Assembly: GCA_021404905.1 (NCBI GenBank)
Contig: QWHN01000001.1
Span: 2,162-66,161 of the forward strand
Origin: Candidatus Saccharibacteria bacterium CPR2
GTDB taxonomy: Bacteria; Patescibacteriota; Saccharimonadia; Saccharimonadales; QWHN01
Direction: 5' to 3'
DNA length: 64,000 nucleotides
In this document: in pieces, positions 2,191 through 48,303 of the stretch
Numbering within the stretch: position 1 is the first letter of the stretch
Layout: each line of letters begins with the position of its first letter
Program-made: the position numbers and the translations under genes
The notes under the pieces: generated by a model
What the model saw: only the letters and a program-made list of their open reading frames with translations
The model's database searches: none
What the model was told of the DNA's origin: nothing

Positions 2191-2330
2191 ACTCTAAACT
2201 ATATTCCTTCCCTCTAATTTTTTCTATATAAGTTGTGGCAAAATTTTATATATTCGCGGTGGTATAGGTGCTCGATCGGTGGCGTGAAGGGCCACCGTGT
2301 ATGTTGTTGCAACTATCATCAGGCAAATGT

Positions 2331-2765
2331 CTAACGATTTGGTTTGATGAACTCTTCCCAAGATTTCATTTTCGACTTTGCAATGCTCTTTGGCTTAAAT
2401 CGAGCTTTTTTGTTATCAAAAATAAAGCGAAGTCGTTGATAGCTAATATAGCTCAAAATAATACCTGTGCTCGTACCAAGATTTAGACTTTCAACAATGC
2501 CACCCATAGGAATTTGAATGCATATATCAGCTTCTTCTGCTGCTTCTTTGGAAATGCCTCGTGATTCATTACCAAACCAGACCGCTAAACGCTTTTGAGT
2601 AAACGATTGTTCATAAAGATTTACATTGTTTTTGCTTTTAAAATGGGACGAGGTTACAGCAATCGTATAGCGATTCTCTCTGAGATGGGCTATACATTTT
2701 GAAGCAGTGTCGAATTGTTTTACAAAAACCCACTTATTAGCACCAACGCTGACACCAGTTTTCAA
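2331..2765 (-). CDS. SpoU/TrmH-family RNA 2'-O-methyltransferase, C-terminal two thirds (N-terminal motif 1 lies upstream of an in-frame TGA; possible pseudogene)
   Basis: SpoU motifs 2/3: VWFGNESRGISKEA and IQIPMGGIVESLNLGTSTGIILSYI. The ORF starts at a TTG and lacks motif 1. See the finding on the TGA at 2787-2789. Confidence 0.7.
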   Translation of the reverse strand: MKTGVSVGANKWVFVKQFDTASKCIAHLRENRYTIAVTSSHFKSKNNVNLYEQSFTQKRLAVWFGNESRGISKEAAEEADICIQIPMGGIVESLNLGTSTGIILSYISYQRLRFIFDNKKARFKPKSIAKSKMKSWEEFIKPNR

Positions 2766-2838
2766 TTTACTAATGATGGTGTATTGTCAACAATTTGGAG
2801 GAGCATGCTGCAAATTGTTGCAACTAAAATCCAGACGA

Positions 2839-3135
2839 CTACCTATATAGCAACAATCCAGTAACAATTAAGAAATCTATAACGAACCAAATTATCTGAG
2901 TGATAATAAATGGTTTAATTTTATGCAGGATTCCATATGCCAAAAATATTAGACCAAGCATCATAAAACCAAACCATGTCCACAATGAGACGCCACTTAC
3001 GTCATGAGTGGTGTAGATTGAATAGACCTGCGGCAGAGCCGTGAGGGGATGAATAATCGCAGCTCCACTCATTAAGTGGTCTACAATTGTAATTTCTTGT
3101 TTTCTTGTTAAGTGTTTGTATAGATGTAAAGACAT
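2839..3135 (-). CDS. SemiSWEET/PQ-loop family 3-TM sugar transporter-like protein
   Basis: 98 aa with three hydrophobic helices. PQ motif in TM1 followed by the conserved pattern (LTALPQVYSIYTTHDVSGVSLWTW). Confidence 0.7.
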   Translation of the reverse strand: MSLHLYKHLTRKQEITIVDHLMSGAAIIHPLTALPQVYSIYTTHDVSGVSLWTWFGFMMLGLIFLAYGILHKIKPFIITQIIWFVIDFLIVTGLLLYR

Positions 3136-3162
3136 TAAAGTAATTATATCAAACGCTTATGC

Positions 3163-3181
3163 TTGGAGGGCCATGTGGGAT
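3163..3181. repeat. Second copy of the tRNA-Lys(CTT) 3' end (19-bp perfect direct repeat of 3334-3352)
   Basis: TTGGAGGGCCATGTGGGAT occurs at 3163-3181 and again at 3334-3352, which is inside and just past the tRNA gene. Confidence 0.9.
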
Positions 3182-3299
3182 GACGCGCCTTCGCGCTATT
3201 CCGTCGATCCAGTGCTCGAAATAAATTTCTGCGCGCTTCACTCCTTACGAACCCATCGCTATGCGATATTGGGTTAGAATATACTCAACAAATACTCCA

Positions 3300-3327
3300 A
3301 TTTCAAAATCCCTCCTTCAGAGGGATT
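3300..3327 (-). terminator. Intrinsic terminator-like hairpin after tRNA-Lys(CTT)
   Basis: Minus-strand sense AATCCCTC-tgaag-GAGGGATT followed by a T-run, 7 nt after the tRNA CCA end. Confidence 0.5.
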
Positions 3328-3334
3328 CAGAAAT

Positions 3335-3411
3335 TGGAGGGCCATGTGGGATTCGAACCCACGACACGCGGCTTAAGAGGCCGCTGCTCTAACCAACTGA
3401 GCTAATGGCCC
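3335..3411 (-). tRNA. tRNA-Lys (anticodon CTT), CCA encoded
   Basis: Reverse complement GGGCCATTAGCTCAGTTGGTTAGAGCAGCGGCCTCTTAAGCCGCGTGTCGTGGGTTCGAATCCCACATGGCCCTCCA. It has a 7-bp acceptor stem, anticodon loop CTCTTAA and T-loop TTCGAAT. Confidence 0.9.
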
Positions 3412-3516
3412 ACACTTCGCTCCGGTTTTACACCGGAGCTACGAGGGGCTATTTGTGCGAGGTTGGTTCTACCAACTGCTAAGCCCATCGAAGCTCGAGC
3501 GCAAGCGAGTGCGAAG
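3412..3516 (-). repeat. tRNA-Lys-associated 'U' element, copy 1 (directly upstream of tRNA-Lys(CTT))
   Basis: It shares ordered blocks CTTCGCA, AGCTTCG, GCCCCTCGTAG and CGAAGTG with 48148-48234. It contains the hairpin CTCCGG-tgtaaaa-CCGGAG. Confidence 0.6.
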
Positions 3517-3534
3517 TTGGGAGCTAATGGCCCT

Positions 3535-3648
3535 CGTCGGAATTCACTATCAGCCTCCGTTTGATCGAATATACTCACAAACTTCAGCTTCTCGTTATTC
3601 CTCCTCTCAATTAATCAAACAGCTTTGCTTGGTTTGATTAATTGTTTT
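3535..3648 (+). repeat. Modular ~110-nt tRNA-trailer element, copy 1 (homologous to 21576-21686, minus strand)
   Basis: Perfect 20-mer CGTCGGAATTCACTATCAGC (3535-3554), then a 30-nt variable block. Next comes a perfect 21-mer CAGCTTCTCGTTATTCCTCCT (3585-3605). A 13-bp hairpin CAATTAATCAAAC/GTTTGATTAATTG (3608-3644) plus TTTT follows. Confidence 0.8.
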
Positions 3649-3951
3649 AAAACTACCAGACCTCTTCCACTTATTTAAGAATCTGGTATTCCGGGAAGGG
3701 TAGCGGACTCTGTCATTTTCCGCTCTGAAACTTTATCACGTTACCCCTGTTTACGCAATAATTTCAGACTGGCTTATTTATGCAAAATTACGACCAATAA
3801 CAAGGAATTCAATGCTAGCCTCCACCCCTCTCATAACTATGTTCTAATGCGACATTATTACAAAAAATAGAAAATACCCGAGAATATTTAAGCATTATCT
3901 ACTTGCCTAATATTATAATTTTGTTATAATTTTGCAGAGAAAGGCACTAAT

Positions 3952-4164
3952 ATGGCACAAAAAGTAATTAAGATTGGTAGCTCTTTGGGCGTTACTATAC
4001 CCAAAAAGGAAGTCAGCGATCTTAATATTATAGCTGGCGATGAAGTGGAAGTAATAATTCGAAAAAAATTTAGCCGAGTTGCAAAACACGAAAAGCTACT
4101 TAAACAGCTGGAAGATTTTATGCACGTATACGATAAAGACTTAAAGAACTTGGCTAAAAGATAG
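3952..4164 (+). CDS. AbrB/MazE/SpoVT-type antitoxin (Phd-like partner of Doc)
   Basis: 70 aa with the swapped-hairpin motif IKIGSSLGVTIPKKEV. The stop overlaps the toxin GTG start (TAGTG). Confidence 0.8.
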   Translation: MAQKVIKIGSSLGVTIPKKEVSDLNIIAGDEVEVIIRKKFSRVAKHEKLLKQLEDFMHVYDKDLKNLAKR

Positions 4165-4547
4165 TGAAATATCTTGATGCAGAAGAAATTTTACTCATCC
4201 ATCATCAGCTAATTAAGCGCTTTGGTGGTTTACACGGCACGCGAAATTTAGAACAAATAAGATCTGTAGCTATAGCCCCAGCGCAACATGTTTTTGACAA
4301 TAAACAATATAAAAGTATTTTTGACAAAGCGTCGGTGTATGCTCGAAATATTATTCTAGATCACCCATTTTATGATGGGAATAAGCGAACCGGCATTACA
4401 ACCGCCATCATGTTTCTTATGAAAAATGACTACAAATTTAGCGCCCAACCCGGGGAAATTGAAGAATTCGCATTCAAAATTGCAGTCAACAAACTGGGTA
4501 TTAAAGAAATATCAACTTGGCTTGAGAAACACGTGTCCTCAGTTTAG
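4164..4547 (+). CDS. doc: Doc (death-on-curing) / Fic-family toxin
   Basis: Doc/Fic motif HPFYDGNKRTG. Size of 127 aa and position downstream of a small AbrB-type antitoxin fit the family. Confidence 0.9.
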   Translation: MKYLDAEEILLIHHQLIKRFGGLHGTRNLEQIRSVAIAPAQHVFDNKQYKSIFDKASVYARNIILDHPFYDGNKRTGITTAIMFLMKNDYKFSAQPGEIEEFAFKIAVNKLGIKEISTWLEKHVSSV

Positions 4548-6211: not shown

Positions 6212-6283
6212 ATTGATTTAAATACTAAGATTATTTTGACGATTGGTCAATATTATTTTATTTGGCTTATGCTTAGCTATAGA

Positions 6284-47890: not shown

Positions 47891-47967
47891 GGGCCTGTAG
47901 CTCAGTTGGTTAGAGCAGCGGCCTTTTAAGCCGCGTGTCGTGGGTTCGAATCCCACCAGGCCCTCCA
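47891..47967 (+). tRNA. tRNA-Lys (anticodon TTT), CCA encoded
   Basis: GGGCCTGTAGCTCAGTTGGTTAGAGCAGCGGCCTTTTAAGCCGCGTGTCGTGGGTTCGAATCCCACCAGGCCCTCCA. Confidence 0.9.
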
Positions 47968-47975
47968 CGCCAAGA

Positions 47976-47999
47976 CCCGACCCTTGTGGTCGGGTTTTT
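47976..47999 (+). terminator. Rho-independent terminator after tRNA-Lys(TTT)
   Basis: CCCGACC-cttgt-GGTCGGG followed by TTTTT. Confidence 0.6.
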
Positions 48000-48127
48000 G
48001 CGTGGTATGTTTTGCGTGATTTGGTTCCACGACGCAGATTTTCCGCGAGAAAAATATGCAAGTCGTGGGTCGGTCATGACGAACTCTCGCAGGAGTTCAC
48101 TCCGAGAAAGTGAGGAAATGTGCGTTT

Positions 48128-48148
48128 ATCCCACCAGGCCCTCCACGC
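48128..48148. repeat. Second copy of the tRNA-Lys(TTT) 3' end (21-bp perfect direct repeat of 47950-47970)
   Basis: ATCCCACCAGGCCCTCCACGC is present at both positions. Confidence 0.9.
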
Positions 48149-48234
48149 TTCGCATAAAGCTTCGTGTGGCAGGCCATTTGGTCTGTCACATTTTTTATCG
48201 AAGTGTGCCCCTCGTAGTTTTAACGAAGTGGGGC
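48148..48234 (+). repeat. tRNA-Lys-associated 'U' element, copy 2
   Basis: Ordered blocks CTTCGCA, AGCTTCG, GCCCCTCGTAG and CGAAGTG are shared with 3412-3516 (minus strand). Confidence 0.6.
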
Positions 48235-48303
48235 TAAAATGATTGAATGTATTATGTATATCTTTTGAAACTTTGTGATAATACTATAGGTTACCCCTAT
48301 AAT

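Follow-up and report, generated by a model that had tools for sequence, protein, structure and literature searches.

The subject of this study is a short, gene-free segment directly behind a lysine tRNA gene in Candidatus Saccharibacteria bacterium CPR2, within the 64,000-nucleotide stretch of contig QWHN01000001.1 that we analyzed as a whole and call the window. The gene, tRNA-Lys(CTT), lies on the minus strand and is intact, and its 3' end is found a second time downstream: the 19-mer TTGGAGGGCCATGTGGGAT has exactly two occurrences in the window (3163-3181 and 3334-3352), where dinucleotide-preserving shuffling predicts 0.01 chance matches and none of 100 shuffles reached the observed count. 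On the tRNA strand it reads ATCCCACATGGCCCTCCA followed by a single A and comprises the last two T-loop bases, the 3' strand of the T-stem, the 3' acceptor strand, the discriminator, CCA and one extra base. The inserted unit measures 171 bp and contains no genes, with 152 nt separating the two 19-mer copies, and no open reading frame (ORF) with any support could be found between 3163 and 3352. On all of these points—the perfect direct repeat, its extent in tRNA terms, and an ORF-less interior with a terminator hairpin—a preliminary description of the locus was accurate. The remaining five tRNA genes of the window have no such copy of their 3' ends. The features at this first locus, given in the direction of the tRNA, are as follows:

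3335-3411, minus strand: tRNA-Lys(CTT), intact, the anchor of the array (ARAGORN; Rfam tRNA model, 72.9 bits)
3334-3352, minus strand: proximal 19-mer copy, the functional tRNA 3' end plus one base (exact match)
3297-3337, minus strand: terminator hairpin, part of the inserted unit; its stem pairs CCAATTTC with GAAATTGG and takes in the CCA of the tRNA
3182-3296, minus strand: ORF-less structured body of family 1 (alignments A2 and A3; model R1, 71.3 bits)
3163-3181, minus strand: distal 19-mer copy (exact match), probably the displaced original 3' end of the tRNA or an attR-side scar
3155-3163, minus strand: junction motif AGCATAAGC, directly past the distal CCA, which recurs at other loci

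The preliminary description had also raised the concern of an assembly mis-join. Independent contigs from three other samples in Logan (L055, L059 and L060; comparison loci and contigs carry L numbers throughout) span 2701-4294 with 100% identity, and locus 1 is therefore not a mis-join. A split or intron-containing tRNA was considered and rejected, since the tRNA is intact and YebC, ComEC and rho-independent terminators mark the genome as bacterial.

A second example, on the plus strand, was found at tRNA-Lys(TTT). The 3' end of this gene recurs 160 nt downstream, and three positions distinguish its repeat from that of locus 1:

47891-47967, plus strand: tRNA-Lys(TTT), the anchor of the second example (ARAGORN; Rfam)
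47950-47970, plus strand: proximal repeat, ATCCCACCAGGCCCTCCACGC, 21 nt (exact match)
47971-48127, plus strand: second ORF-less unit, family 1 type B, terminator followed by body (R1, 81 bits)
48128-48148, plus strand: distal repeat, 21 nt (exact match)
48149-48235, plus strand: F-like element, including a terminator-like hairpin at 48164-48191

In the terminator of this unit, CCACGC (47965-47970) pairs with GCGTGG (48000-48005). The unit is 76% identical to those of L024 and L008, and contigs L132 and L138 reproduce the locus at 100% identity.

We interpret 3163-3352, with a probability of about 65%, as a cargo-less insertion cassette, one of a family of small elements directed at the 3' ends of tRNA-Lys genes, and of at least one tRNA-Arg gene, in Saccharibacteria. 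The observations behind this interpretation are insertion polymorphism, the occurrence of arrays, the reuse of bodies across different tRNAs and array positions, decay of the distal copies and the lack of a recombinase gene nearby; the units would seem to move as discrete modules.

To begin with the distribution, a one-genome-per-species scan with the tRNA-Lys body gave 45 loci, nearly all of them from Candidatus Saccharibacteria or Saccharimonadales. The tRNA's own last 18 nt are found again 116-179 nt downstream in about 12 loci (twice in L008 and L043), and most loci have no such copy. Counted over the 60 tRNAs of these loci, the feature is present at 3 of 7 Lys(CTT), 10 of 40 Lys(TTT) and 1 of 6 Arg(TCG) genes, and at none of the others. 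We also counted the 9-mer core of the repeat, GGCCCTCCA, in 47 tRNA-Lys loci with one mismatch allowed. On the tRNA strand there are 36 copies downstream and 3 upstream, and on the opposite strand 9 downstream and 12 upstream—a concentration downstream on the tRNA strand with a binomial p of 9.7e-9, to which about 21 of the 47 loci contribute at least one copy and the rest none. In the window as a whole, the core is not over-represented (nine matches vs 6.6 expected), and on this count a DNA uptake sequence was rejected as a candidate.

Sequences flanking the units help to define their limits. CCA followed by AGCATAAGC stands behind the distal copy at locus 1 of the window, at the Arg unit of L033 and in L041, and behind the tRNA itself in L001 and L011; similarly, CCAAGCATAAGC stands right after the tRNA in L001 and L011, and after junctions inside the arrays of L009, L033 (Arg) and L041. 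The CCA..CGCTTATGTTTAAAC flank of L009 (CGCTTATGGTTAA) is also the flank of the unoccupied L003. The terminator, in turn, goes with the type of unit: those of locus 2 and L045 agree at 87% over 39 nt, and L008 has the same terminator in its second unit. Because the distal flank matches unoccupied loci and the terminator follows the unit type, the unit consists of terminator plus body; we infer which repeat copy arrived with it. About half of the genomes have mutations in their distal copies (L009 and L024 are examples), and the distal CCA is altered to CCC (L039), CTA (L045), CAA (L022 and the second copy in L009) or TCA (several short ends, including window position 2285). Since distal copies decay and lose their CCA, they are recombination scars and not tRNA mimics. 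The functional tRNA-3'-end mimic offered in the preliminary description fails on the same ground, and also on the absence of a 5' acceptor strand from all units examined.

Insertion polymorphism is seen when the window is compared with its relatives. In L120, tRNA-Lys(CTT) is directly followed by trmH, and in L119 and the window an ORF-less unit lies in between; judged from sequence, L120 is the apparent unoccupied counterpart of the window site, the comparison being one between species. At locus 2, a contig from Logan sample SRR28563254 (L133) is 99.9% identical to window 49223-47963 and then departs inside the proximal repeat, after CTCCA; past the divergence, in place of the tRNA body, its positions 1262-2365 hold a methyltransferase ORF as well as a fragment containing a KMSKS motif. 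This divergence hints at current activity. Apart from this variant, Logan contigs matched by exact window proteins came from identical strains only.

With respect to internal organization, three kinds of unit can be distinguished: two consist of an ORF-less, structured body of ~110 nt together with a 17-22-mer, and the third is a gene cassette ending in AGTTGCGATAGCGTCTACGAT plus GGCCCTCCA. The ORF-less inserts belong to several sequence families with a single architecture, namely a terminator (CCA...TGG), a structured body and a copy of the tRNA 3' end, and the CCA...TGG terminator layout opens every unit in relatives. Family 1 includes both window units as well as those of L024, L008b, L016, L054, L033, L042, L026 and L031. 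Its signature is an invariant GGGTTCG, which corresponds to the 8-mer copy of the 5' T-arm (CGAACCCA, present at 3248-3255 and 3354-3361 as described before), and a hairpin of the form C.CAG-stem-CGAG.A inside a 5-6-bp helix. In the locus-1 body, helix P1 forms between AACCCA (3270-3275) and TGGGTT (3250-3255), the latter overlapping the invariant motif, and the conserved hairpin P2/P3 lies at 3211-3237. RNAalifold analysis of family 1 revealed compensatory changes at six of the nine predicted P2/P3 pairs, with a covariation score of 0.622 vs 0.208 for shuffled alignments (none of 500 as high) and no more than 0.204 for slid controls.

This structured body could be taken for a small-RNA gene, i.e., a transcript with a tRNA-Lys-like 3' end that is processed or CCA-tagged and acts as a mimic or decoy of the acceptor end. 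The covarying body hairpins would suit such a gene, as would the terminator behind the distal copy at locus 2, a promoter-like site past the tRNA terminator (3306-3278) and a family-2 hairpin whose tRNA-sense strand has five G-U pairs but no A-C pair. Yet promoter-like sites occur at the rate of shuffled sequence (3 vs 3.2), the lack of any 5' acceptor strand leaves the 3' copy without a partner, both CCA and 18-mer have decayed in about half of the genomes, and Rfam returned nothing beyond the tRNAs themselves, with chance-level matches only for the units. Moreover, the best-conserved family-1 hairpin fits the antisense strand better (107 of 109 canonical cells in P2/P3, vs 93 of 109 in tRNA sense), and the core is also used by gene cassettes that have no structured body. 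We consider a small-RNA gene unlikely on balance. Other RNA candidates were tried and rejected: a tmRNA-like or two-piece tmRNA, suggested by GGATTCGAAC motifs, has no ARAGORN or Rfam support and its acceptor is not of the Ala type; a tRNA-like small RNA of the tmRNA, YrlA or mascRNA type has no 5' partner, has lost the CCA in several genomes and matches Rfam at chance level; and an omega-RNA-like or crRNA-like scaffold with guide is speculative, since no nuclease partner was seen and gene cassettes share the core without the scaffold.

A converse idea is that the antisense strand is the functional one, as an RNA or a folded single-stranded DNA that opens with 18 nt complementary to the tRNA-Lys 3' end and continues into hairpins, much like a retroviral primer-binding site or a tRNA-sensing leader. 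The repeat does correspond exactly to tRNA positions 59-76 and matches a retroviral primer-binding site in both length and position, and the would-be G-U cells of P2/P3 number 14 in antisense and 0 in sense; however, 10 of these 14 differing cells come from a single conserved C·A position. The folding energy of the whole body favors the sense strand in 8 of 11 units, and the G-U pairs of helix P1a and of the family-2 hairpin fall in the sense strand. Additionally, the other unit types have repeats of 9-11 or 21-22 nt, and no reverse transcriptase was present among the window ORFs scanned. A functional antisense strand is accordingly a remote prospect. As to the functional strand in general, the modeled structures diverge: P2/P3 would point to antisense, and folding energies, P1a and the family-2 hairpin would favor tRNA sense.

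The bodies are also found in new surroundings. At tRNA-Arg(TCG) in L033, a family-1 body is accompanied by a 17-mer of the Arg gene and itself retains the Lys-like GTGGG and the CGCAGAAATTTATTTCGAG of the window; because the Arg unit has the same body with an Arg 17-mer, the body is portable and the repeat is supplied by the target. This finding bears on a simpler explanation, in which the tRNA 3' end was duplicated locally by replication slippage or template switching, with neither mobility nor function. In line with such an origin, the unit contains inverted and direct partial copies of the 3' third of the tRNA, and R1 matches every tRNA T-arm at ~18 bits; the same bodies in distant genomes, behind different tRNAs and at different array positions contradict it, and we regard it as the least credible of the explanations weighed here.

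The insertions also occur in series. Tandem units are found in L008, L043 and L054, and R1—a covariance model of the family-1 core—matches bodies 0.8-1.2 kb downstream of tRNA-Lys, with cargo genes in between (L039, an APH gene; L001, three small genes; L028, two genes). In L009 (3848-7115), two near-identical units of 177 bp enclose 3 kb of cargo with a C39-like peptidase, a PhD/YoeB pair, a DDE transposase and a DUF4258/DUF2283-like pair. The third type of cassette end is unstructured: (T)AGTTGCGATAGCGTCTACGAT and then GGCCCTCCA are found directly past stop codons at ~28 sites. In the window, the array reads, starting from tRNA-Lys(CTT), an ORF-less unit (3182-3334) with the 18-mer and then a gene cassette that ends at 2285:

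2285-3162, minus strand: next cassette of the array, with an ORF for a 98-aa membrane protein (2839-3135) and a 5'-truncated trmH/SpoU gene (2331-2765)
2285-2316, minus strand: cassette end TAGTTGCAACAACATACACGGT plus a degenerate core, GGCCCTTCA, right after the trmH/SpoU ORF

The trmH/SpoU ORF (minus strand) encodes 144 aa vs ~210 aa in homologues; the N-terminal ~67 residues are absent from the window, and the 98-aa membrane ORF occupies their place. Full-length trmH forms a cassette between the same ends in L116, L120 and L122-L125. The array of L116 comprises the tRNA 3' end, a NUDIX gene, trmH, a DUF5373 gene with a 147-aa ORF, a 308-aa ORF and RelB/YafQ, each cassette being closed by the short conserved end and core. 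In L120, tRNA-Lys(CTT) and trmH are followed by six more sites, and L115 contains six sites within 7 kb; overall, the number of sites is six or seven in each of L115, L116 and L120, at intervals of 0.3-2.7 kb. In L122-L125, whose TrmH is 89% identical to that of the window, trmH lies in the middle of the array with sites on both sides. The order in L119 is tRNA-Lys(CTT), a shikimate-kinase cassette, an ORF-less unit and trmH, the 19-mer of the unit being a match to the tRNA at a distance of 700 nt; this order implies that new cassettes enter at the tRNA-proximal junction. The trmH cassette thus takes four different array positions among the relatives.

Taken with the unoccupied sites and the occurrence of one body at Lys and Arg genes with their own repeats, the tandem arrays and the larger cargo-bearing insertions that end in the same bodies bear out the att-like reading of the repeat given in the preliminary description, and its miniature, non-autonomous element fits the unoccupied sites, arrays and portable bodies. 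A miniature inverted-repeat or other non-autonomous transposon, by comparison, was rejected as a candidate, the repeats being 9-22 nt of one specific sequence and found only behind tRNAs.

Less of the earlier account survives where it attributed the repeat to a tyrosine integrase and allowed that the element might be heavily decayed. The window, the 47 tRNA-Lys loci and 12 additional loci yielded no tyrosine integrase, and tblastn with hand-entered XerD and lambda Int queries gave no match below E = 0.3 in the window or any locus. The 25 commonest Pfam families in the 92 ORFs located up to 4.5 kb downstream of tRNA-Lys include no recombinase, and ten unassigned ORFs of the window gave no match to a recombinase family. 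The genes called in L115-L126 likewise include no recombinase other than an rve fragment in L117 and L118, which have no sites. The functions encoded in the window are housekeeping ones (RecA, RuvABC, DnaK/DnaJ, type IV pilus genes and ComEC), and the genes upstream of the tRNAs are housekeeping genes as well.

These results count against a stump of a larger prophage or integrative island that entered through a tyrosine integrase and was reduced by internal deletions to its two att ends. Such elements are reportedly integrated at tRNA 3' ends by tyrosine integrases (Reiter 1989; Williams 2002), and a repeat reaching from the T-loop to CCA is said to mark their classic sublocation (Williams 2002); partial tRNA copies in general have been traced to this origin (PMC9897764). 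Independent deletions, though, would not yield units of 136-179 nt with one architecture in many genomes, the loci examined contain neither integrase nor phage genes, and their neighbors are housekeeping genes. Furthermore, conservation of sequence and structure exceeds neutral decay: the locus-1 unit is 76.5% identical to that of L054, where the YebC, RimK and RuvC proteins of window and unit-bearing hosts are only 59-73% identical, unit size is uniform and the conserved hairpin covaries. Descent from a decayed island is improbable for these reasons, slightly more so than a small-RNA gene.

Several observations weigh against our reading of the locus as an insertion cassette. No recombinase, transposase or reverse transcriptase linked to the units was found, and the distal junction shows no inverted T-stem half-site, unlike the classic att cores of the T-loop. 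The window unit does not exceed shuffled sequence in folding stability (z = -0.17). Among the available relatives, even the closest differ by 11-18% in the TrmH protein, so that all empty-site comparisons are between species, and the sequences compared contained neither an excised circle nor an empty site within a single population; a strain-level change would have the L133 variant, a single short-read contig, as its sole basis. Repeat length varies with the type of unit (9-11, 17-19 and 21-22 nt), and one enzyme need not account for all of these lengths. Finally, the metagenome scan gave the double-repeat pattern at two loci only, the metagenome and viral scans together adding little, and two scans of viral contigs for an attP returned only unrelated phage tRNAs or chance 15-mers.

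If the cassette interpretation holds, a unit would be composed of three parts: a replacement or duplicate of the tRNA's last 9-22 nt, its own terminator hairpin with the CCA inside the stem, and either the ~110-nt structured body or one to three genes in the same orientation with a conserved end of ~22 nt behind them. Insertion would take place inside or beside the core GGCCCTCCA; it would leave the tRNA whole and place another copy of the tRNA's 3' end beyond the unit. With further rounds of insertion at the junction next to the tRNA, head-to-tail arrays could then build up. The reaction might be performed by a site-specific recombinase encoded elsewhere and acting in trans. Alternatively, it may proceed by RecA-dependent exchange between the repeated 30-45-nt ends following natural transformation; Saccharibacteria are competent, and competence genes are present in the window. 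The conserved hairpin of the body could serve as a cis-acting site for the reaction or represent small-RNA cargo.

Comparison with known systems places these units between several classes of elements. Like the islands that integrate at tRNA genes, they have a direct repeat of the tRNA 3' end, an intact tRNA at one end, presence and absence among relatives, and tandem accretion. Unlike them, the units measure 0.15-1.5 kb rather than 5-100 kb, have no integrase inside or adjacent and no symmetric core half-site at the distal junction, and occur by the dozen as tiny units in ordered, co-oriented arrays. The integration of islands at tRNA 3' ends by tyrosine integrases, including the logic of their repeats, has been summarized (PMC9897764). 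The units follow the repeat logic of such islands. Literature searches on Saccharibacteria combined with integrons, tRNA-like RNA or genomic islands found nothing relevant.

Staphylococci provide a further parallel in the staphylococcal cassette chromosome (SCC) and pseudo-SCC elements, composite islands at the 3' end of rlmH with Ccr serine recombinases that are usually encoded in one element of the array. These elements, too, occur in tandem, some without a recombinase, lie between direct repeats of a conserved gene's 3' end and are mobilized in trans; in contrast to the units described here, they are kilobases long, their Ccr enzymes are known and their target is protein-coding. The cis-mobilizable elements (CIMEs), integrative mobile elements exploiting Xer (IMEX) and pdif modules share the principle of att-flanked modules without a recombinase of their own. 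The junction 10-mer GCTTATGCTT, which occurs in both orientations, is reminiscent of the inner ends of dif arms, but no complete 28-bp dif-like site (11 + 6 + 11 bp) can be read, only this half-site-like 10-mer. As a separate observation, the 10-mer follows the core in either direction at many loci, i.e., as CCA plus AGCATAAGC or as CCA plus nnnnCGCTTATGCTTAAAC, and a further copy lies after the stop codon of ComEC (6265-6273, minus strand).

Resemblances to integrons invite a more far-reaching and tentative proposal, which we think possible although the odds are against it: a tRNA-anchored, integron-like platform for gene capture in Saccharibacteria. The tRNA-Lys 3' end would play the role of attI, and the ~30-nt ends (...ACGAT-GGCCCTCCA) or ~110-nt folded bodies that of attC; small co-oriented cassettes, among them ORF-less ones with structured RNA such as 3163-3352, would be inserted beside the tRNA and shuffled, either by a recombinase in trans or through repeat-guided recombination of DNA taken up by natural competence. 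In common with integrons, the arrays have a fixed anchor, small and mostly co-oriented cassettes of 0.3-1.5 kb with site-like ends that share a short core, ORF-less and toxin-antitoxin cassettes, and a cassette content and order that vary among relatives (L115, L116, L120 and L122-L125). They differ in that the anchor is a tRNA 3' end with no adjoining intI, and in that the core is GGCCCTCCA instead of GTTRRRY, within a simple end of ~30 nt devoid of R''/L''/L'/R' symmetry; the consensus of the 28 short ends, AGTTGCGATAGCGTCTACGAT-GGCCCTCCA, displays no symmetry of the attC type.

Further features surround the two tRNA-Lys genes. The first 13 nt of tRNA-Lys(CTT) recur 122 nt upstream (3521-3533), as part of an insertion on the 5' side of the gene:

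3412-3533, minus strand: a copy of tRNA positions 1-13 (3521-3533), CCA and a 106-nt structured 'F' element (3412-3517)

F has a long-range stem, CACTTCGC/GCGAAGTG, and occurs in the window at 3412-3533 (minus strand) and 48149-48235 (plus strand), and in L013 downstream of tRNA-Lys(CTT). At locus 1 it separates the intact tRNA from the copy of positions 1-13 with its CCA; elsewhere it stands behind a CCA and closes with sequence similar to the 5' end of a tRNA. F may represent the spacer between two tRNA-Lys genes that were once in tandem. Also in L013, 130-400 nt downstream of tRNA-Lys(CTT), a small GIY-YIG ORF is flanked by a tRNA-Lys-like 5' fragment (GTGGCCAT) and a 3' fragment (GTCCCACTGGGCCCTCCA). 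Upstream of locus 1, window 3534-3660 (minus strand) is a conserved, structured leader of ~120-150 nt that is also found upstream of tRNA-Lys in L008, L009, L039, L043, L053 and L054; it consists of a hairpin and TTGAGAGGAG...GAAGC...CGACGA, leads straight into the tRNA 5' end and has no Rfam match. A pair of genes for a MazE/AbrB-type antitoxin and a Fic/Doc toxin (3952-4547, plus strand) lies immediately upstream of this leader. Short-read contigs from several samples (L127-L131 and L056-L058) end within the tRNA-Lys genes, at window positions 3375 and 47955—probably because both genes share long identical stretches, which makes these loci prone to fragmentation.

Saccharibacteria, like other members of the candidate phyla radiation (CPR), combine tiny genomes and few recognized mobile elements with a life as epibionts, and the ways in which they acquire and exchange genes are little understood. 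The repeated tRNA ends described here break short-read assemblies and can be mis-called as tRNA fragments, and the ORF-less units constitute a set of covarying structured elements; cultivated, transformable strains of Saccharibacteria exist. The cargo seen in the cassettes includes toxin-antitoxin pairs, NUDIX, GyrI-like and APH genes, and even trmH, and the tRNA-anchored array of mini-cassettes, if our interpretation is true, would be a compact hotspot of gene exchange in these organisms.

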